Numbered from the stretch's first letter, positions 14,787 through 63,827 are shown. The stretch is DNA of 64,000 nucleotides from Mayamaea pseudoterrestris (GCA_027923505.1 BROI01000019.1:62001-126000), one strand, 5' to 3'. The notes: generated by a model from the letters alone, not told the origin. Translations and numbers: made by a program.

Positions 14787-14986
14787 ATGTTTAGCTACCG
14801 ATGCGGTATACTCATGACTGCATCGGTCGCCATTTGTCTCAATACTCTTTACACTACAACATATAGCTGATGCGAGTGTTTAAATTATGTTTAGCTACCG
14901 ATGCGGTATATTCATGACTGCATCGGTCGCCATTTGTCTCAATACTCTTTACACTACAACATATAGCTGATGGGAGTGTTTAAATT
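14787..14986. repeat. 100-bp direct tandem duplication (2 copies, 2 mismatches)
   Basis: 14787-14886 and 14887-14986 both begin atgtttagctaccgatgcgg and end gagtgtttaaatt. Confidence 0.95.
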
Positions 14987-53082: not shown

Positions 53083-54090
53083 TCACAAGAACGAGTCATC
53101 CCCCGACGACAAACTCGCCGAGTCTCCATAGTCAAGTAGCATTTCGCCTCCATCCAAGTATTCGTGATGGAGCGCCGCGTTCATGTATGCTTCTCCGCAA
53201 GTGCGAACGAGCAATATCTCAAAAGTCAGCAGGACGGACACAATGGCACTCGTCCAAACGACTATATCAATGCTTTCGTTGTCATCGTCTCCTTCATTCT
53301 TCTTTTCCATGATGCTAGTTACTACCATGTCAATGGCAATATATATACAAAAGGCCGCAAAGAGAATCATGGCAAGCACCATACATATCGTCGGCATGAC
53401 ATGGCTCCAGCGGCAGGCCCGATGCACCTGCTCCAACGGCAAACCGCTCCGTTTATGTTGCGGCAGCTGCAACACTTGTAGCTCCAGCAGTCCATCCAGC
53501 ATTGTCTCGTCGTGCGCCGGCACGGGGCCTTCAAAGGAAACTTGCGTCAAGTCGAATTGCATTGTGACGATTGGTAATCTTGTTGTTGGCGGCTTCCATC
53601 CCGACGTTTCCACAAAGTCAGACGCCAAGGTGCGGACGCGCTTGCGGACGCGCTTGTAAAAGGCTTGCGGACTCGCCTCGTCAAACGTCTTGTATTCAAT
53701 CACAACGTAGCATTCGGCTTCGGGACAGCAGTCGGTGTCGTTGCTGGTGCTGCTGCAGCATGAGGGACGACATTGCGTTTGCGATCCAAACTGCCGCGTG
53801 TATTGAATCGACCGACTGTCCACGGCGGCTCGAATCAAAATCCCGTCGCGCAGGTAGCGACGTAGCAGTAGATCCTCCTTGACGGAAAAGTAGCCAAGCA
53901 AGATTCCAAACAGGGAAAGTAGTAGCGCGCAAAGTAACGCAAAGGAAACGATAATGGCCGTGTCAAAGTCTGTCGTTGTCTCAATGACATCTTGCGTTAT
54001 GTCATCGCCCTCGGCGACATCTTCTGCAGTAGCTATTGTAATCGATGATATTATAACTGCCAACGTTACCAGTAGCCTTGTACGAAGCAT
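53083..54090 (-). CDS. Membrane protein with signal peptide and 3 TM helices, function unknown
   Basis: ATG at 54090 gives the signal peptide MLRTRLLVTLAVIISSITIATA; hydrophobic segments follow. Confidence 0.65.
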   Translation of the reverse strand: MLRTRLLVTLAVIISSITIATAEDVAEGDDITQDVIETTTDFDTAIIVSFALLCALLLSLFGILLGYFSVKEDLLLRRYLRDGILIRAAVDSRSIQYTRQFGSQTQCRPSCCSSTSNDTDCCPEAECYVVIEYKTFDEASPQAFYKRVRKRVRTLASDFVETSGWKPPTTRLPIVTMQFDLTQVSFEGPVPAHDETMLDGLLELQVLQLPQHKRSGLPLEQVHRACRWSHVMPTICMVLAMILFAAFCIYIAIDMVVTSIMEKKNEGDDDNESIDIVVWTSAIVSVLLTFEILLVRTCGEAYMNAALHHEYLDGGEMLLDYGDSASLSSGDDSFL

Positions 54091-54189
54091 GGTCCTGCTT
54101 ATGGTAACTGCATGACTCTCTTTCGCTCGCTCGTTCCAACTTGAACGCAACGGCTGATTACTGGCAGAGTTGTGATGGCGTTCCGTCAG

Positions 54190-54469
54190 CGATGGAACTT
54201 GGAATTCTCGTCCGTTGAAAACTGTTGAAAAACGTCGATGGCGCGGCGCGCGCTAGCGGCGCGGTCCCCTCACCTCATTCTTCGTTCAAGCAGTGAGCAC
54301 CATGATGGCGACTATGAACATGCTGCCGCCACCAAACCGAATATCTCGACAATTCCTGGCGTATTTAGCAGCTCTTTGGATAGTCTCTGATATTTATGGA
54401 AACGTAACAGCATTTTCCATCCAAACGTCGCGGCGAAACCGTGGCAGTGCCATGCAAATCATCAAGAGC
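54190..54469. repeat. 280-bp host-sequence direct repeat, left copy
   Basis: Matches 63548-63827 with one mismatch seen (A54412/G63770). Confidence 0.95.
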
Positions 54470-54826
54470 TTTTGGGATTCTGGATTGGTCGAAATGAGAG
54501 GTGGTGCTTTCAGGATTCCAAGTTCCTTCAAGCCACGCCAGCGGCGTTCGCAGCGAACAGCCTCTTCAATCTTTCCTTGTTCTTCGGTTCGGAGTGGCGC
54601 ATGTCCCGCGGGGCATTCACTGACAACTCCGAACTAGTCGTGGTCATCCGGAACAATGACCTTGATCGTGGATGACCATTTGGCCGCAAAGCACACGCAA
54701 CACACCAACAACGAACCAGTCTGCTCCTTTGATTGTTGTTGTTGCTGCAGCTCATAATTCCTGGATCACCCCGAGTCTCCCGTCGAGACCAGTAATTATA
54801 GATTTTTAAGTCTTCCTCCCATCAAG

Positions 54827-56957
54827 ATGTCTTCCAACTGGCTCTCCTACTACTCGGACCCGAGTCGCAATCGCCGCGTTCTTCCTCCGCTCTACAACGG
54901 ACTCGCTCAAACCATCATGACGTTCCAAGAGCACAAGGTCGAGAGCTCCTTGGAGAAGCTCTTTGCAACTCCCGCGACTCCAGTTGCTCTCATTTCTTTT
55001 GATGGAGACAAGATTGGAGTGCATGTGGCTCACCATTTCACGTTCGCTCCCAAGGATCAAAGCAACCCTCGCAACGCGTCAACGTTGTTTGCCTTCCTCG
55101 GTCACAAGGCCTCCGCTCCGGTCACTTTGATTGACGTCAAGACTCTTGAGCTTGTTACCAACAAGGCGACGCCAGTGTCTAAGCTCGGGCGAGTTTGTGT
55201 TCAAGTGGGAACCAAGATCCTCAGTTTCCCTTTCGCTCGTTCGCCCGCCTGCTTTCCCATCCGCCATTGCCATTGAGGCCATTGCCAAGAACTCCGCACT
55301 CCAGCGCTTATGTACCTAGAGTAGCCTAAGCCTAACTTAGTTGCTCGTGGCTGAGTAGAGCGTCTTACAACGTCCCCTTGCTCCAATCCTTTGGTGTGTT
55401 GCCATTTTGTGCCGACGCTTCAAGTCCATTCCAGCGGCAACCAAGACATTCCAGCGGCACGCAAGTTGGTCCAACATCCCCTTTATCCACGCGACCACGA
55501 AGACGACACAGCGCGTGCTCTCTGTTGACTCTGACTCTGACTCGGATGGCGAGCAATTAAAGAAGCTGAAGAACTTTGACTTTAAGAATCCCGACGCTAT
55601 GAATGAACTCGTCGGCAACTTGCTGGTCACCATGCATACGCTCACGAAGACGACGCTCAAGAAGGACAAGCAGGCAGCTCTCCAAGCCAAGCGCCACGCC
55701 GACGACCTTGACAAGCGCCATGAAGAGCGCAAGCGCAACGACGAGGCGCAGCGTCTTTTGATTGAAAAGACTTGCAAGTCTGGCGAGTCTTCATCATCCG
55801 GATTCTCCAAGCTCCTCGGCGACAACCAGCGCATGCTCCTTCGCCTCGCAACGCCCATCAGCGGAGTCACTCCCGAAGAGCCTTCCACATTCCAAACAAC
55901 CTTCTTTGCCGCCAAGAAAGATATTGCTCATTCGTTGTTGAAGCAAGCTTGCGAACGCTACAATGCTGAGTTTGTTGTTGGAAAAGGGGTGTCGCTGCGC
56001 ACGCTTTCAACGGACATCCCCGCGTCGAACCGGGACTCAACCATGAACATCTCCCTCCTCAACTTTACGGGCGCTCTTGTTGTCGTTCATTCTACTGATG
56101 ACCTTTGCGATCGCCAAGCTCTAGCCAACAATCAAGTTGAAGGATCTACCATGAAGAAGATTGCTGGCGACATTGTTTGGGAGTTTCCATCCGATGGCAA
56201 CGCGCTCGTCCGTGGCCTCTTCAAGTATGCCGTTTACTTTGACGTACTCGCTGGCCTCTCTCCAACCAGCGGCACATCCACCCTCATCGCTCAAAAGATT
56301 CGCTCCTTGGCTTCCACGTTAGCGAATCGCATTGACAAGATGCAAACGTTGCAGAATCAAGATCCTGACGCCATCGCTCAGTTTGCCAACACGATCGACA
56401 CCAAGATCAACATTTTCCTCAACCATTGTTTCAAGGACGCCATCTTCGACCCTACTCGCCTCGACGAGTTGGAAACCCTTGACAAGTACTTGGACTGTGG
56501 CTTTTCAAGCATCCTTTGCACCATTCCATCCTTCTTGCTCGAGCGCCTTCCATCGCATCGCATTGCCAAACGTGGCGCCGGCCAGCTGCCAGGAGGAGCC
56601 TCTCCTCCTGTAATCAAGCAAGCGAAGACTGGCGATGAAGGTGGCGCAGGAGCTCGCCAATTCCAAGCTCGCATCAATCCAAACAAGTTGGATATCCCAG
56701 CAGGGCATACGTATCAAAGCCTCTGTCCTCCAGGCAGCTTCCGTCGCAGTCCTCGGATCAAGATCGGCAACAAGGCAGGCCGCCCTTGCTTGAACTACTA
56801 CCTTCGCGGCGAATGCCGTTACCGCATCTGTCAAAACATGCATGGTCCATTGCGCCCTCAAGATAAAGTAAAACTCGAAGCGTTTATCGCTGCTCAAGCG
56901 GCCAATCCCAATGGAGACGCCAACCCACCAGCGGCCGCGGATGAGGACGAGTCCTGA
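54827..56957 (+). pseudogene. gag-like ORF1 with C-terminal CCCH knuckle, disrupted at 55174-55470
   Basis: The N-terminus is identical to the 62731 ORF. The 55407-56957 frame ends in CLNYYLRGECRYRICQNMH. A 756-aa gag can be rebuilt from 62731-63549 plus 55506-56954. Confidence 0.75.
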
Positions 56958-56999
56958 GGAGAATCCTCCACATGGTCAGCGGATGACCATGCTGGAGGA
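56955..56999 (+). promoter_or_regulatory. Candidate stop-codon readthrough signal: TGA + 6-nt spacer + 15-bp hairpin
   Basis: TGA GGAGAA TCCTCCA-CATGGTCA [GCGGA] TGACCATG-c-TGGAGGA, followed by an open in-frame pol. Confidence 0.7.
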
Positions 57000-59939
57000 G
57001 CCTCTACTAGTTACGGCAACAATAACTTAGTAGCACAAGGTTCCAATCCCTACCATAACGCTACTAGTCGACTCGTCAACAACAACATCAACGAACACGT
57101 CCATGCCCCACCGGCAGCCACTGCGACCTCTCCAAGGCTGCGTCATCTTCACAATCAATGGCAGCGTCTCCAACAACAAGTTGATTCACTCACTTCATCA
57201 ACAGCAACAGCAACCATCGAGGACGAGTCATCCTCCTCCGACGACGACTCTGCCACCTACAGTGTTCATTCCATTCATCACCAGTCCGCGGCATCAACAA
57301 GCCATGCTACAGACTCGACGGCAACCACGACAGCCGCCCCGACGCCCACCAAGCCAACGTTTGCAATCAACGCTCCAACAGTCGCTCCAGCCATCCTCGC
57401 ATCGCCATCACGCCAGCTCACACCAGCGCGCAAACATCAACTTGCCTGGACGGCGCGTCGCCTCGCTGCTCGTACCGAGCGAGACGACTCAGAGGAGGAG
57501 GCAGACGACGGCGACGCAAACGGATCGGCCGCCACAACAACAAAGAATGGACCAGCACTTAAACGGATTAAGCATAAGCATCCAATGTCCACATTCCTGC
57601 ATCCTTCTTCCATATCAAACGAAATGAGTAAGTACTCCTTTCAACAAGTCCTCAAATGGACTGTCCGAATCCCTTCGTCTGCCCAGGACGAGTCCGCAAC
57701 AAACCCACCCAACGTCCCAATTACCATCCACGTTAACGCCACATCCACTACACAATCAATTGGACTCGCTTTATCGACTGAACTAGTCGATCCAGGGATT
57801 GATTTGCCGCCTGCTCCTTGGCCGTCCAACGACGCCACCTGGCTGCAGTCCATCCTCCAAGCGCTCCAGTGGTTGCCACCGCCTTTACTTCCGTCGCCCT
57901 TCTGCTTTGAAATTACGCAAGAGGCAGCTGCCTACAATTTATCCATTCTTCAAGCCAACGACATGGATTTGCGCCACTTGCTCTTCTCCAACAAGGATTT
58001 GCCAACTTGTCCGGGCTCCAACTTTCGCCCAGTGGAACTACTCGATCCAATCTTCCTTGGCCACCCTAACTGGCCGCGTGTTCGCAGCACACTCAACAGG
58101 CGTGGCCTTTCCTCTCGATCCTCTCGAGGAGAAGACGCGCATTGAGGAGCTCAACGCCATGGTCGATTATGGGAATCACAAGTCAGCAAAAACGGAGCGA
58201 CACGCAGTCCTCGACACGTTGAAAGAAGAGACGGCAAAAGGATGGCATCTGCCTCTACCACTTGACGCTCTACATCTTATTCCCAACGTCTCTGTTGCTC
58301 CTTTTGGATATGTTAAACAACTCAAGCTACAAGCCGACGGATCCCGCAAGGAGGCTGGAAGGATTACGCACGATCAAACGTTCTGCCGTCTCCACGATGG
58401 CACCTCTGTTAATAAACGGGTCCGCAAGGCCGATCTACCACCCGTCTTCTACGGATTTGCTTTGCAACGCCTTCTTCATCGGATCATTGCTACAAGAGAC
58501 AAGTATAATGATCTTCCTATCTATCTTCCTAAATATGACTGGAAATCAGCCTACAAAAACTGTCACTTTGGCCTCGAAACACTTGTCCAATCGGCAACCA
58601 CGACAAAAGGTATCACGATCGACTCCACGCTGGCGCTCTTTGCCCTTCGCATGACTTTCGGTGGCTCTCCATGCCCCACAGTCTTCAGTGACCTCTCGGA
58701 ACTAGTCACTGACGCGGCCAACCAACTCGTCCGCGACGGCAACTGGCACCCTGCGACAATCCAATCCAGGTTCATTGCCAACATCAGCGTGGAACCAATC
58801 GTGTATCCTACGCCATCAACACCATTTGCAACATCTCGCCCCATGGCAGTTGGTGCTATGATCCCTGTTGATGGCAGCCCTTGTTTTGACGTCTTTCTTG
58901 ATGATCATCTTGGCGTCATTGTCCATACTAGTAACGACGCATTGATCCGTGGTGCTCATGCCATCCCATTATTACTTGATGTGCTTGGTCGCCCCGAGCG
59001 TGCCGACGAACCTCTACCGCGAAACGCTTTAATTGCAGTCTCCAAGTTGATTGCGGAAGGGTGTTTAACAGAGATTCAAGTGGTACTTGGTTGGGAGATT
59101 GATACTCGCACTCTTATCATCCGCCTCCCAGCCGACAAATTTCGCCTCTATACGACGAGTATTCGACCTCTCCAAAGTTTCTGCAACTCCACAATCAATA
59201 ACAACATCTCCACCAACAAGTTGATTCTTTATCATCATCATCATCAACAGCAACCATTGAGGCTGACTCATCCGCCTCTGACGACGACTCTGCTAGAAGG
59301 TGCGAAGTATTAGAAAGAGTGTCTATCTCGAGCAGAACGCCGCGATTTGATCACCTGCTTGGAGTACCTTACCACTGCTCACGCTGTGTGGACATCAACA
59401 CCATCTTTCGATACCCCGACGCCTTTGTCCTTATGGATGCTTGCATGTACCAAGTAAGCGGTTACAATTTGGATGGACGAGGATGGCACTGGCGCGTTCC
59501 AAAAGGTGCAACGCTGCAGCACATCAACTTTTATAAGTTCCTTGGCTTTGTTGTCGGCATTTGGCTCGCCGCCTTCGAAGGACGCCTCCATCAAGGAGAT
59601 TGCGTGCTCGCCATTGGTGACAACACTACAGCAGCAGGATGGCTGCATCGCTCCAACTTTTCAGATGAAACAGCCACTCCTCAAACGGTCTTGCTAGCGA
59701 GGCTGTTGTCCGCCATCTGTTTGGAATACGGAGTCTGCTGCAACTCGCAGTGGCATATGGGATTGGATAACGTGGTTCCTGATTTAATATCACATGATAT
59801 GGCCTGTTCTGATGCCAATCTCACCACCCACATCCTCTTCGTTCCTTCTTTGGCCTTAAAGGTACCGGCCTCCTTTTGCGTGGCTCGTCTACCGAGCAGG
59901 ATTTCATGCGCTCTCTCCTCCTTGATGCAGCTGACATGA
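56958..59939 (+). pseudogene. pol: reverse transcriptase-RNase H with lesions
   Basis: RT motifs GNHKSA, KYDWKSAY, MTFGGSPCP, FLDD, LGW; RNase H motifs DAC, HIN, GDNTTA, NVVPDLIS. Frameshifts near 58095 and 59385; in-frame TAG at 59311-59313. Confidence 0.88.
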
Positions 59940-61407
59940 GTTCCTCGGAGTCACACGCGCCACACACGCTAGAACATGGCTTGGGACCGTTGGATACGTT
60001 CTCTGAAAGAGCTGGTTTCTCGACCAATCCGTTCCTCCTTGAAGTCGACAGCCACCAACGCTTCCTTCTCTTCCTCGCCTTCATCCAGTCTGTCAGGAAC
60101 GACAACTATTCATCGCCACGCAACGGAAATCCCTTCTTGGTTGCCGGATCTGTCCAGTCCACCATCAATGGTGTGGCTAAGGCCTTTAAAGCCGCCGGCC
60201 ACCCCGACCCTCACAAAAATGACAGAGGAGACAACTTTCTAGTACTCGAGCGTCTCTACAAAGGCTACAAGAACTTGGATCCGTCTACGCGTCATCAAAT
60301 GGCGCTCCCGATGTATCTCTTGCGCAAGCTTATCATGGAGCGCTCTGACAATCCAGCCTACAGTCTATCTCGAGCAGAACGCCGCGATTTGATCACCTGC
60401 TTGGAGTACCTTACCACTGCTCACGCTGTGTGGACATCAACACCATCTTTCGATACCCCGACGCCTTTGTCCTTATGGATGCTTGCATGTACCAAGTAAG
60501 CGGTTACAATTTGGATGGACGAGGATGGCACTGGCGCGTTCCAAAAGGTGCAACGCTGCAGCACATCAACTTTTATAAGTTCCTTGGCTTTGTTGTCGGC
60601 ATTTGGCTCGCCGCCTTCGAAGGACGCCTCCATCAAGGAGATTGCGTGCTCGCCATTGGTGACAACACTACAGCAGCAGGATGGCTGCATCGCTCCAACT
60701 TTTCAGATGAAACAGCCACTCCTCAAACGGTCTTGCTAGCGAGGCTGTTGTCCGCCATCTGTTTGGAATACGGAGTCTGCTGCAACTCGCAGTGGCATAT
60801 GGGATTGGATAACGTGGTTCCTGATTTAATATCACATGATATGGCCTGTTCTGATGCCAATCTCACCACCCACATCCTCTTCGTTCCTTCTTTGGCCTTA
60901 AAGGTACCGGCCTCCTTTTGCGTGGCTCGTCTACCGAGCAGGATTTCATGCGCTCTCTCCTCCTTGATGCAGCTGACATGAGTTCCTCGGAGTCACACGC
61001 GCCACACACGCTAGAACATGGCTTGGGACCGTTGGATACGTTCTCTGAAAGAGCTGGTTTCTCGACCAATCCGTTCCTCCTTGAAGTCGACAGCCACCAA
61101 CGCTTCCTTCTCTTCCTCGCCTTCATCCAGTCTGTCAGGAACGACAACTATTCATCGCCACGCAACGGAAATCCCTTCTTGGTTGCCGGATCTGTCCAGT
61201 CCACCATCAATGGTGTGGCTAAGGCCTTTAAAGCCGCCGGCCACCCCGACCCTCACAAAAATGACAGAGGAGACAACTTTCTAGTACTCGAGCGTCTCTA
61301 CAAAGGCTACAAGAACTTGGATCCGTCTACGCGTCATCAAATGGCGCTCCCGATGTCCCTAATGCGCAAGCTTATCATGGAGCGCTCTGACAATCCAGCC
61401 TACAGTC
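59321..61407. repeat. 1042-bp-period tandem duplication (RNase H plus YR 5' part)
   Basis: 59321-60365 matches 60363-61407; 3-bp GTC overlap at the junction. Confidence 0.95.
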
Positions 61408-62306
61408 ATTTCCAGCTATTAGTCGGCCTCGCAGTCTTCTTTGCAATGCGCTCTTGCGAGTACCTTTGCATCCAAAAAGGCGACAGAGTTGAACGCCGCA
61501 CGCTGCCCATTCGAGCGTGCGATATAACGTTCTGGAAAGATGGCAAAAAGCTACCTCATAATAGCTCCTCCCTACACTTTGCCGACTCAGTTTCCATCAT
61601 CTTTCGCTTTCAAAAGAATCAATGGCGAGATGAAATTGTCACAATGGGACGCTCCGGACACTATTTCATGTGCCCCGTTGTCCTTGCGGCTTTGCTCGTC
61701 CGCTCGCTAAACAAGCTCGTCTCCAAGAAGCTTGTTAAGGAAGATGCCGAGCTCTACCATTACCTCGATTCTAATGGCAAAGTTGCTACTTGCAATACCA
61801 AGTTGGCGCTTCAATTCCTTCGCCAGTTTGTTTCCAGCAACGAGCCCGATTCCCTTGGCCTCGAAGTCGACCGCGTTGGCCTCCATTCCCTTCGCGCTAC
61901 TGCAGCAATGGCTATGTATCTTGCCAACGTTCAAGTCTGCACTATAATGCTTGTTGGACGATGGCGCAGCTTTGCCTTCTTATCTTATATTCGCAAGCAA
62001 GTGGAGCAGTTTACCGAGGGCGTTTCCGCCAAGATGCTTACCGTCGACTCCTTTCACACCGTCAACATTCAACGCCACCAACAACAACAACAACATCAAC
62101 AACCTCATTACATTTCCGATCAAACAGAACAACGGACGCTCCCATGCCATGGGACCACGTTGCCCATCGCCTTCAACGCGCCCGCCCACGCTCCCCCGCC
62201 ATCAATGGCACAGCAGCAGCTTCTGCAGCTGACGAGTGATCGCGCTTTACCGCCGATCAGTCACTGTGTTCAGTGGGGGAGGCTTTGGTTCCGACACATT
62301 AGCTAA
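60918..62306 (+). CDS. Tyrosine recombinase (phage-integrase fold) of the retrotransposon; first ATG 60948
   Basis: Catalytic residues all present: FFAMRSCEY (R), FQKN (K), HSLR (HxxR), GRWRS..SYIR (W, Y). Overlaps the RNase H 3' end in another frame. Confidence 0.92.
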   Translation: MRGSSTEQDFMRSLLLDAADMSSSESHAPHTLEHGLGPLDTFSERAGFSTNPFLLEVDSHQRFLLFLAFIQSVRNDNYSSPRNGNPFLVAGSVQSTINGVAKAFKAAGHPDPHKNDRGDNFLVLERLYKGYKNLDPSTRHQMALPMSLMRKLIMERSDNPAYSHFQLLVGLAVFFAMRSCEYLCIQKGDRVERRTLPIRACDITFWKDGKKLPHNSSSLHFADSVSIIFRFQKNQWRDEIVTMGRSGHYFMCPVVLAALLVRSLNKLVSKKLVKEDAELYHYLDSNGKVATCNTKLALQFLRQFVSSNEPDSLGLEVDRVGLHSLRATAAMAMYLANVQVCTIMLVGRWRSFAFLSYIRKQVEQFTEGVSAKMLTVDSFHTVNIQRHQQQQQHQQPHYISDQTEQRTLPCHGTTLPIAFNAPAHAPPPSMAQQQLLQLTSDRALPPISHCVQWGRLWFRHIS

Positions 62307-62730
62307 ACCAAAGTTTTCTGCAAGCGCCAGCTTCTTCATGTAGTTAATGAGGAATCTGTTTTGAGCCTGGTTCTTTTGGGATTCTGGATTGGTCGAAATG
62401 AGAGGTGGTGCTTTCAGGATTCCAAGTTCCTTCAAGCCACGCCAGCGGCGTTCGCAGCGAACAGCCTCTTCAATCTTTCCTTGTTCTTCGGTTCGGAGTG
62501 GCGCATGTCCCGCGGGGCATTCACTGACAACTCCGAACTAGTCGTGGTCATCCGGAACAATGACCTTGATCGTGGATGACCATTTGGCCGCAAAGCACAC
62601 GCAACACACCAACAACGAACCAGTCTGCTCCTTTGATTGTTGTTGTTGCTGCAGCTCATAATTCCTGGATCACCCCGAGTCTCCCGTCGAGACCAGTAAT
62701 TATAGATTTTTAAGTCTTCCTCCCATCAAG

Positions 62731-63576
62731 ATGTCTTCCAACTGGCTCTCCTACTACTCGGACCCGAGTCGCAATCGCCGCGTTCTTCCTCCGCTCTACA
62801 ACGGACTCGCTCAAACCATCATGACGTTCCAAGAGCACAAGGTCGAGAGCTCCTTGGAGAAGCTCTTTGCAACTCCCGCGACTCCAGTTGCTCTCATTTC
62901 TTTTGATGGAGACAAGATTGGAGTGCATGTGGCTCACCATTTCACGTTCGCTCCCAAGGATCAAAGCAACCCTCGCAACGCGTCAACGTTGTTTGCCTTC
63001 CTCGGTCACAAGGCCTCCGCTCCGGTCACTTTGATTGACGTCAAGACTCTTGAGCTTGTTACCAACAAGGCGACGCCTGTCTACACGCCTCTGGGCGAGG
63101 TTCTGTTCGATTTGAAGAACTTGGAGCGTCCAGTCCTCGAGGAATTGCTCAAGCTCGAAACCAACGTTTTGTCGCCTCTTGTTTCGCCCGCCTGCTTTCC
63201 CATCCCGCCACTTGCCATTGAGGCCATTGCCAAGCACGGTCCATACGATATTGAAGGCATCCTTTCAGCCTTTATGTCAACCTTGTGTACTTGGCCCACT
63301 CAGTATGCCTCTGTGGTCTCTACAGTCGACGTCTACCACAACGCCTTTCCCTTTGCTCAATTCCTTTGGTGGGCGTTGAAGGTGACCAGCAATTCGGACT
63401 TGTCTTCGGCCGACGAGGCGATACTTAAGTCCCTTCCTGGTTTGCCTACCATTTTGGACGCCGACTCCATTCCAGCGGCAACCCTCGAAGATCTTGCCGA
63501 GCACGCCAAGTTTGCCAACATCCCCTTTATCCACGCGACCACGAAGACGATGGAACTTGGAATTCTCGTCCGTTGA
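62731..63576 (+). pseudogene. 3'-truncated second gag copy fused to host sequence
   Basis: 273 gag codons, then the frame runs into the host repeat (MELGILVR*). Confidence 0.8.
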
Positions 63577-63827
63577 AAACTGTTGAAAAACGTCGATGGC
63601 GCGGCGCGCGCTAGCGGCGCGGTCCCCTCACCTCATTCTTCGTTCAAGCAGTGAGCACCATGATGGCGACTATGAACATGCTGCCGCCACCAAACCGAAT
63701 ATCTCGACAATTCCTGGCGTATTTAGCAGCTCTTTGGATAGTCTCTGATATTTATGGAAACGTAACAGCGTTTTCCATCCAAACGTCGCGGCGAAACCGT
63801 GGCAGTGCCATGCAAATCATCAAGAGC
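63548..63827. repeat. 280-bp host-sequence direct repeat, right copy
   Basis: Matches 54190-54469. Confidence 0.95.

Follow-up and report, generated by a model that had tools for sequence, protein, structure and literature searches.

We analyzed a 64,000-nt stretch of Mayamaea pseudoterrestris DNA (GCA_027923505.1 BROI01000019.1:62001-126000), referred to below as the window, with coordinates counted from its first nucleotide. The window contains a diatom retrotransposon of the Mayamaea type whose gene order is best explained as a gag-like open reading frame (ORF1), a UGA codon, pol (reverse transcriptase, RT, and then an RNase H-like region) and a Cre-like tyrosine recombinase (Table 1). The sequence at the end of gag is as described in an earlier first-pass annotation, which had listed the TGA at 56955-57, the 6-nt spacer and the 15-bp bulged stem with a GCGGA loop. 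Directly behind the stop-to-stop ORF 55359..56957 (532 aa), the same frame continues as the ORF 56958..58145 (395 aa). The first methionine of the latter is residue 210 (ATG 57585), which bears out the earlier statement that the frame stays open for 209 codons without an ATG and runs into the ORF at 57585.

Table 1. Coordinates of the features of the retrotransposon in the window
Feature	Position	Strand	Basis or remark
5' repeat with a disrupted copy of the ORF1 N-terminal part	54469..55202	+	98.9% identical to 62373-63108, self-BLAST
gag-like ORF1, C-terminal 532 codons	55359..56954	+	Cys/His knuckle C-x8-C-x4-C-x3-H, 37 residues before the stop
In-frame UGA between gag and pol, candidate readthrough site	56955..56957	+	TGA in the sequence
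6-nt spacer GGAGAA	56958..56963	+	same 6-7 nt spacing in relatives
Post-stop linker, open, low-complexity	56958..57764	+	first in-frame ATG 57585
15-bp stem with one bulged C and 5-nt loop, presumed readthrough stimulator	56964..56999	+	minimum free energy (MFE) and pair probabilities
Conserved N-terminal pol domain	57765..58095	+	same frame as gag; homologue alignments
RT domain	58087..59154	+	AlphaFold2 model and Foldseek
2-nt deletion private to the window copy	58095..58096	+	contigs of X1, X2 and X3 have 2 extra nt after 58095
Rearranged segment in place of the RT-RNase H linker	59155..59320	+	59164-59293 81% identical to linker segment 57124-57253
Tandem duplication, 1,055 bp	59321..61416	+	59321-60375 = 60363-61416, 99.3% identical
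Tyrosine recombinase, conserved core of ORF 60855..62306 (483 codons)	61032..62174	+	AlphaFold2 and Foldseek
3' repeat or beginning of another copy, ORF1 N-terminal part intact (ATG 62731..63576)	62373..63550	+	

The 209 codons after the stop contain no stop codon in frame 0, whereas the two remaining frames have 2 and 9, and the post-stop frame was open in a fraction of 0.0004 of 5,000 mononucleotide shuffles. Thus, the open frame of the window copy is more than an effect of composition. The coding signature in the window lineage is weak, with 14 of the 25 differences between two copies of a linker segment at third codon positions. A motif common to the Mayamaea subfamilies starts upstream of ATG 57585. 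Judged from protein alignments, the post-stop linker is not conserved as a protein outside the species. ORF1 itself has a weak Pfam match to zf-CCCH_12 (E 0.002).

The stop is found in other sequences of the species. The M. pseudoterrestris hypothetical protein P0001, the sole gag homologue in the protein set searched (lengths 292-931 aa), is identical to the window gag over its last 290 aa and ends at the same residue. Contigs of the public runs X1-X3, which come from two coded organisms, bridge the stop site; the comparison of four public runs with the window gave 304 differences, and among the 40 best-supported of these no variant was located at 56955-56999. Therefore, the stop is not private to the window copy. 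No protein spanning the gag-pol junction (408-1299 aa) was found in a set of 5.8 billion proteins. The first-pass annotation had regarded a sense codon in other copies as the sign of a simple nonsense mutation, and none came to light in P0001, the listed contig differences or the junction protein search.

The hairpin after the spacer (5' arm 56964-78, loop GCGGA 56979-83, 3' arm 56984-99 with one extra C) has an MFE of -34.6 kcal/mol over 81 nt, at a z of -4.18 and with 0 of 200 shuffles as stable; a z of -4.88 was also obtained. Its pair probabilities are at least 0.97. A gapless inverted-repeat search misses the bulged hairpin, and stability was ranked instead in an MFE scan of 12,791 overlapping 45-nt segments over the whole 64 kb, in which the hairpin came second. 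The most stable 45-nt segment (53733-53775, with a 71-nt hairpin at -35.2 kcal/mol and z -4.10) lies outside the element, inside the span of a 355-codon minus-strand ORF at 53083..54150. A competing hairpin overlapping the stop, earlier suggested as a switch, has to be discarded, given a pair probability of about 0 (-4.3 versus -24.3 kcal/mol). Rfam, including the selenocysteine insertion sequence (SECIS) families, gave no family in the element at E<=1, and none in six relatives apart from one weak lncRNA match.

Relatives were drawn from metagenomes as the best 80 of 368 stretches encoding an RT relative, with RT identities of 33-43%. Enough upstream sequence for an evaluation of the gag-pol junction was present in 33 of the 80 loci, and these junctions were typed by walking the pol frame upstream in each locus. 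The most common configuration, observed in 19 of the 33 loci, is a single in-frame stop directly after a same-frame ORF of 515-870 codons. Three loci have overlapping -1 frames at the junction, two have no stop and a continuous gag-pol ORF (L005 and L007), and one has a 1-nt offset near the TGA (L061). Altogether, 29 in-frame junctions were available (19 full, 6 partial and 2 small ones, as well as 2 second junctions on permuted or tandem contigs), and the junction stop is TGA in all 29. The pol ORFs of these loci end with TAG (8), TGA (6) or TAA (3), and 12 run off the contig. Nearly all major clades of the RT tree, in which the window groups with Mayamaea proteins, include loci with the in-frame TGA layout. 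Searches with the RT returned about 40 long protein homologues, and no relatives were found among the viral contigs scanned.

Between the TGA and the RT, 24 loci with 7,332 codons contain no in-frame stop, compared with 266 and 293 stops in the other frames. In the relatives, 210-470 open codons follow the stop without a conserved methionine; the first methionine is located 14-329 codons after the stop, and a conserved peptide begins immediately after it. The nonsynonymous diversity of the post-stop region is below the synonymous one (pN < pS), and omega is 0.17-0.39 where computable; the first 60 post-stop codons are less constrained (omega 0.38-0.88 where computable). By these measures, the post-stop frame of the relatives is open and under purifying selection. 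Upstream of the stop, a Cys/His knuckle was present in 25 of 25 ORF1 C-termini when a loose pattern was applied, and a strict CCCH expression matched 2 of 27 relatives. Tandem repeats with units of 66 and 90 nt were observed in the post-stop linkers of two relatives (L052:4886-5432 and L053:3083-3262), which suggests a repeat-prone, poorly constrained spacer.

In 17 of these junctions, a conserved stem-loop follows the stop. Twelve junctions align without gaps and share a fold that begins 7 nt past the TGA and consists of 7 bp, a bulge, a further 3 bp and a loop of 4 nt. In this alignment, 97.5% of the cells are paired, compensatory changes are found in 6 of the 10 pairs, and G-U pairs occur at one position in 7 of the 12 sequences. 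None of 500 shuffles reached the observed pairing and compensation, slid registers paired to at most 52.5%, and RNAalifold independently gave the same structure. A covariance model trained on the 12 junctions yielded 19 matches in a search space of 486,841 nt, all of them on the plus strand and after a gag-terminal TGA, and 7 of the 19 were outside of the training set. The spacing to the TGA is 6-7 nt. Three further loci (L023, L055 and L057) have a different hairpin 6 nt after the TGA. Homology of the window hairpin to the motif of the relatives was considered and rejected; the covariance model does not match the window.

Other solutions at the junction were found within the same family. In L005 and L007, no stop follows the Cys/His knuckle; both are nested in the RT tree beside TGA lineages, and the protein P0010 is also continuous. 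Therefore, a gag-pol fusion protein is viable in this family. In one RT clade (L008, L028, L032, L039, L056 and L071), gag ends with GGAUUUU-stop (TAG, TGA or TAA), a G-rich hairpin follows, and three of the loci have an overlapping pol in the -1 frame. At L009:6452, the gag frame contains a canonical UUUAAAU heptamer with a hairpin after it. Judged by their sequences, the members of this clade and L009 seem to have gone over from readthrough to -1 frameshifting, a change inside the family.

We consider programmed UGA readthrough to be the best explanation of these observations, and a probable one. In functional copies, translation would mostly terminate at the UGA with release of Gag, and a minority of the ribosomes would read this codon by way of a near-cognate tRNA. 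A stable stem-loop 6 nt downstream would be positioned at the mRNA entrance of the ribosome and might thereby aid decoding. Ribosomes that pass the UGA would proceed through the long disordered linker into the RT, so that a Gag-Pol fusion would be made at a fixed low ratio. All three parts of this scheme, readthrough by ribosomes, stimulation by the hairpin and a set ratio of Gag to Gag-Pol, we infer from sequence patterns. Recoding aided by the stem had been proposed in the first-pass annotation. The conserved TGA, the open frame and the covarying stem of the relatives strengthen that proposal, and conservation of the stem, suggested there as a check, holds for the spacing and the covariation in the relatives; the stem of the window itself falls outside of that motif.

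Known systems resemble this arrangement to different degrees. In murine leukemia virus (MuLV), one frame is shared by gag and pol, which are separated by a single stop that is followed by a short spacer and a stable RNA structure, and Gag-Pol is made at a low ratio (PMC3159437). The earlier comparison with this virus can be kept in a loose sense, with regard to the same-frame gag and pol, the single stop, the short spacer and the 3' structure. The viral signal differs in having a UAG, an 8-nt spacer and a compact (H-type) pseudoknot, compared with a UGA, 6 nt and a predicted plain bulged hairpin in the window, pseudoknots being outside the prediction. Furthermore, the window element has a tyrosine recombinase, and neither a protease nor a DDE integrase was detected in it by Pfam, which misses the RT too. 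In alphaviruses, furoviruses and Drosophila kelch, a UGA is followed after 7-12 nt by a stem of 10-14 bp with a 1-nt bulge and compensatory changes (Firth et al., 2011; PMC3159437). The 10-bp bulged stem of the relatives, with its six covarying pairs after the UGA, is similar, but the known stems enclose loops of 100-270 nt, whereas the loops here have 4-5 nt and the spacer 6-7 nt. The closest known stem is that of SEPN1, in which 16 bp with a 1-nt bulge and a 5-nt loop, located 6 nt after the UGA, stimulate readthrough without the SECIS (PMC3159437). The window hairpin has a nearly identical geometry (15 bp, 1-nt bulge, 5-nt loop, 6-nt spacer), but SEPN1 is a cellular selenoprotein mRNA with a SECIS, and Rfam revealed none in the window element.

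Several observations weigh against readthrough or its stimulation by the hairpin. Additional stops or a frame change separate gag and pol in 8 of the 33 loci, and 12 of the 29 in-frame junctions lack significant local structure within their first 60 nt (z -1.23 to +1.32). The window hairpin is unlike the motif of the relatives in sequence and shares only its position and geometry; its support is thermodynamic and positional, and the covariation is that of the relatives. Among the 150 matches listed of 304, none covers post-stop residues 1-212. Of the contig differences, 264 of the 304 are outside the listed set, so that a variant at the stop is possible. A C after the stop is the most readthrough-prone context; the base is G in the window and variable among the relatives. 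A Mayamaea gene model of 2173 aa (P0004) fuses ORF1, pol and recombinase, and its DNA may lack the stop or the model may skip it. Compared with the window, P0004 is 29% identical in gag and 77% identical in the RT, a contrast in the protein sequences that points to modular exchange between subfamilies.

If pol were instead expressed independently, from an internal promoter, from a spliced or subgenomic RNA, or by ribosomes initiating internally, be it at AUG 57585 or at a codon other than AUG, the in-frame layout would be incidental, and the hairpin would have a different role in the RNA, for example in packaging, dimerization or cDNA priming. We regard this as unlikely, although there is a precedent. 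Candida albicans Tca2 has gag-UGA-pol in one frame with a 3' pseudoknot, and this arrangement gave no readthrough in a yeast reporter, a result that also counts against readthrough in our element, while a minor internal promoter was found (PMC2194720). Tca2 differs in being a long terminal repeat (LTR) element with an integrase, and no family-wide covariation is reported in the available part of that study (PMC2194720). Independent expression would also agree with the lack of protein conservation of the window linker and with the gene models P0002, P0003 and P0005, which begin at internal methionines. However, an invariant TGA followed by hundreds of stop-free codons in the relatives is unexpected for an untranslated spacer, the position of the first methionine varies widely with a conserved peptide preceding it, and P0006 has a leucine at the methionine with which pol would start in the window. 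The fixed distance of 6-7 nt between stop and hairpin and the fused gag-pol ORFs of relatives argue in the same direction.

The remaining alternatives to readthrough carry little weight. The window copy is decayed (2-nt deletion at 58095, replaced linker 59155-59320, 1-kb duplication, broken ORF1 N-terminus), and the TGA could accordingly be an inactivating nonsense mutation in a dead copy with a hairpin that arose by chance; yet P0001 has the same end, the listed contig differences contain no variant at the site, the stop is conserved throughout the family, and the second most stable segment of the 64 kb is found exactly 6 nt past the stop. We therefore assign almost no probability to a chance mutation. 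Decoding of the UGA as selenocysteine is suggested by the resemblance of the 6-nt-spaced stem to the SEPN1 element (PMC3159437), and one might also suppose that UGA is a sense codon in these hosts. Both ideas are very improbable: no SECIS or other Rfam family was found in the element at E<=1, and there is exactly one in-frame TGA per about 1,600-2,000 codons. Moreover, TGA ends 6 of 17 pol ORFs and is thus a working stop in these hosts. It is just as improbable that the palindrome is a DNA site for the recombinase of the element rather than an RNA signal. The element does encode a Cre-like enzyme, and recombinase sites are inverted repeats that flank a core of 6-8 bp. However, it is the pairing and not the sequence that is kept in the relatives, G-U pairs and a bulge fit RNA but not a protein-bound DNA duplex, and the distance that stays constant is that to the stop codon and not that to the ends of the element.

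The identity of the element was derived from its proteins and repeats. Sequence profiles of Pfam, NCBIfam and PDB gave no RT or recombinase assignment, but only a weak zf-CCCH match and low-complexity noise, so that a comparison of folds was needed; Pfam Phage_integrase matched relatives weakly (E 0.003-0.06). The AlphaFold2 model of the RT (pLDDT, predicted local distance difference test, 89.3) has the RTs of HERV-K, MMLV, HIV-1 and Ty3 as top Foldseek matches (E 2e-5 to 7e-5), and by this model the RT is of the retroviral/LTR type. The recombinase model (pLDDT 84.9) matches Cre best (E 6.9e-7), followed by XerH, XerA, Tn1549 and lambda Int, and its predicted fold is Cre-like; residues R140, K195, R288, W311 and Y319 are invariant across 32 sequences. 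After the RT, a conserved block is present in all homologues, which we take to be RNase H-like from its motifs. The RNase H-like block of the intact Mayamaea protein P0002 (586-742) borders directly on its recombinase block (723-984), which leaves no room for a methyltransferase domain, as in Ngaro-like elements. Pfam gave no match to an aspartic protease or a DDE integrase in the window or the relatives, a weak negative, since Pfam misses the RT too.

The terminal repeats are direct, and the window contains no long inverted pairs. Inverted repeats of at least 100 nt are absent from the window and from five of the six relatives examined; without inverted terminal repeats, the element does not fall into the DIRS1-like group, which is marked by such repeats together with a complementary region inside the element. 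Taken together, the RT and recombinase folds, the lack of room for a methyltransferase and the direct repeats identify the element, as far as models can, as a YR (tyrosine recombinase) retrotransposon with a Ngaro-like gene order. The assignment to the YR retrotransposons (DIRS order) in the first-pass annotation is thereby borne out by the two folds.

The order of the repeats is X-Y ... Y-X, with X at 54190-54469 and 63548-63827 and Y at 54469-55202 and 62373-63108. Y holds the 5' part of ORF1, and this order fits neither LTRs nor split direct repeats; a second, truncated copy in tandem together with duplication of a flank may account for it. The contigs of other copies diverge upstream of 54469, where they have loose ends. 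One relative (L053) has the order b-a-b ... a-b, and tandem copies confuse such patterns. Neither order exactly matches the split direct repeats A1 ... B1-A2-B2 described for Ngaro (PMC6681497). In four cases (L025:6283-6353, L058:6034-6104, L009:1218-2501 and L026:1-882), a recombinase ORF upstream of gag or a second gag-TGA-hairpin junction past the recombinase was observed, which fits tandem arrays or assembled circular forms. Repeats of 101 nt occur near the 3' end of L007 (7262-7564). Elsewhere in the window, a 100-nt unit is present in two tandem copies that are 98% identical (14787-14986).

The window element is a defective (dead) copy, and its value is in the signal, not the locus. Its RT ORF (57787..59313) is in a different frame from the post-stop ORF, a point absent from the first-pass annotation. 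Contigs of three runs have two additional nucleotides after 58095, and P0002 runs continuously across both pol frames of the window; therefore, the post-stop frame is the true pol frame, and the 2-nt deletion has shifted the pol of the window into the frame of the ORF 57787..59313. After 59154 the other copies continue differently, and residues 511-585 of P0002 have no counterpart in the window. The 1,055-bp duplication, which could be real or an assembly artefact, spans the RNase H-like region (59388-59933 and 60430-60975) and the recombinase N-terminus. Because of the deletion, the replaced RT-RNase H linker and the 1-kb duplication, this copy is unable to make Pol. Of the two repeats, the left has a broken and the right an intact N-terminal part of ORF1. 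In contigs of two runs, 57046 is joined to 59164 and 57044 to 58223, which suggests deletion derivatives that keep gag, the stop and the hairpin.

The Ngaro/VIPER/PAT-like elements share with the present one a gag-like ORF1, RT/RNase H, a tyrosine recombinase, direct terminal repeats and frequent tandem copies (PMC6681497, PMC3783388), but in the available parts of these descriptions they have separate, overlapping or frameshifted ORFs and no readthrough. The first-pass annotation had likewise stated that ORFs in the DIRS order are described as separate or overlapping and that readthrough is undescribed, in agreement with the portions of the open literature searched. The available text of PMC8547959, PMC6681497, PMC3783388 and PMC3266345 does not mention readthrough for such elements, and that of PMC8226300 mentions it solely as a feature of annotation in general, without reference to these elements. 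The open literature searched yielded no account of translational readthrough for the DIRS order; original element descriptions may hold an earlier notice. The mechanism is thus of a known kind, while its occurrence in this class of elements and the compact conserved stem-loop motif appear to be new.

In a wider reading, which taken as a whole we favor only slightly, the window element belongs to a large, essentially unannotated Ngaro-like YR family in diatoms and other protists, in which UGA readthrough via a compact stem-loop would be ancestral and the signal would have been swapped between lineages. The compact motif, a spacer of 6-7 nt and then a stem of 7 bp and 3 bp that is interrupted by a bulge and capped by a UAGC-type tetraloop, would have been replaced by other hairpins (Mayamaea), by -1 frameshifting at GGAUUUU-stop with a hairpin, or by a fused ORF.

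If this wider reading holds, the DIRS order would thereby gain its first known recoding system. The conserved UGA together with the covarying stem-loop would offer, for one large protist family, a concrete, testable answer to how YR retrotransposons balance structural protein against enzyme. The compact stem-loop would also extend the short list of eukaryotic readthrough stimulators. For annotation, it would follow that the pol ORFs of such elements should not be called from the first ATG and that the stop should not be taken as a sign of decay. Finally, the readthrough, -1 frameshift and fused forms within a single RT tree would constitute a natural experiment in the evolution of recoding and the exchange of its signals.

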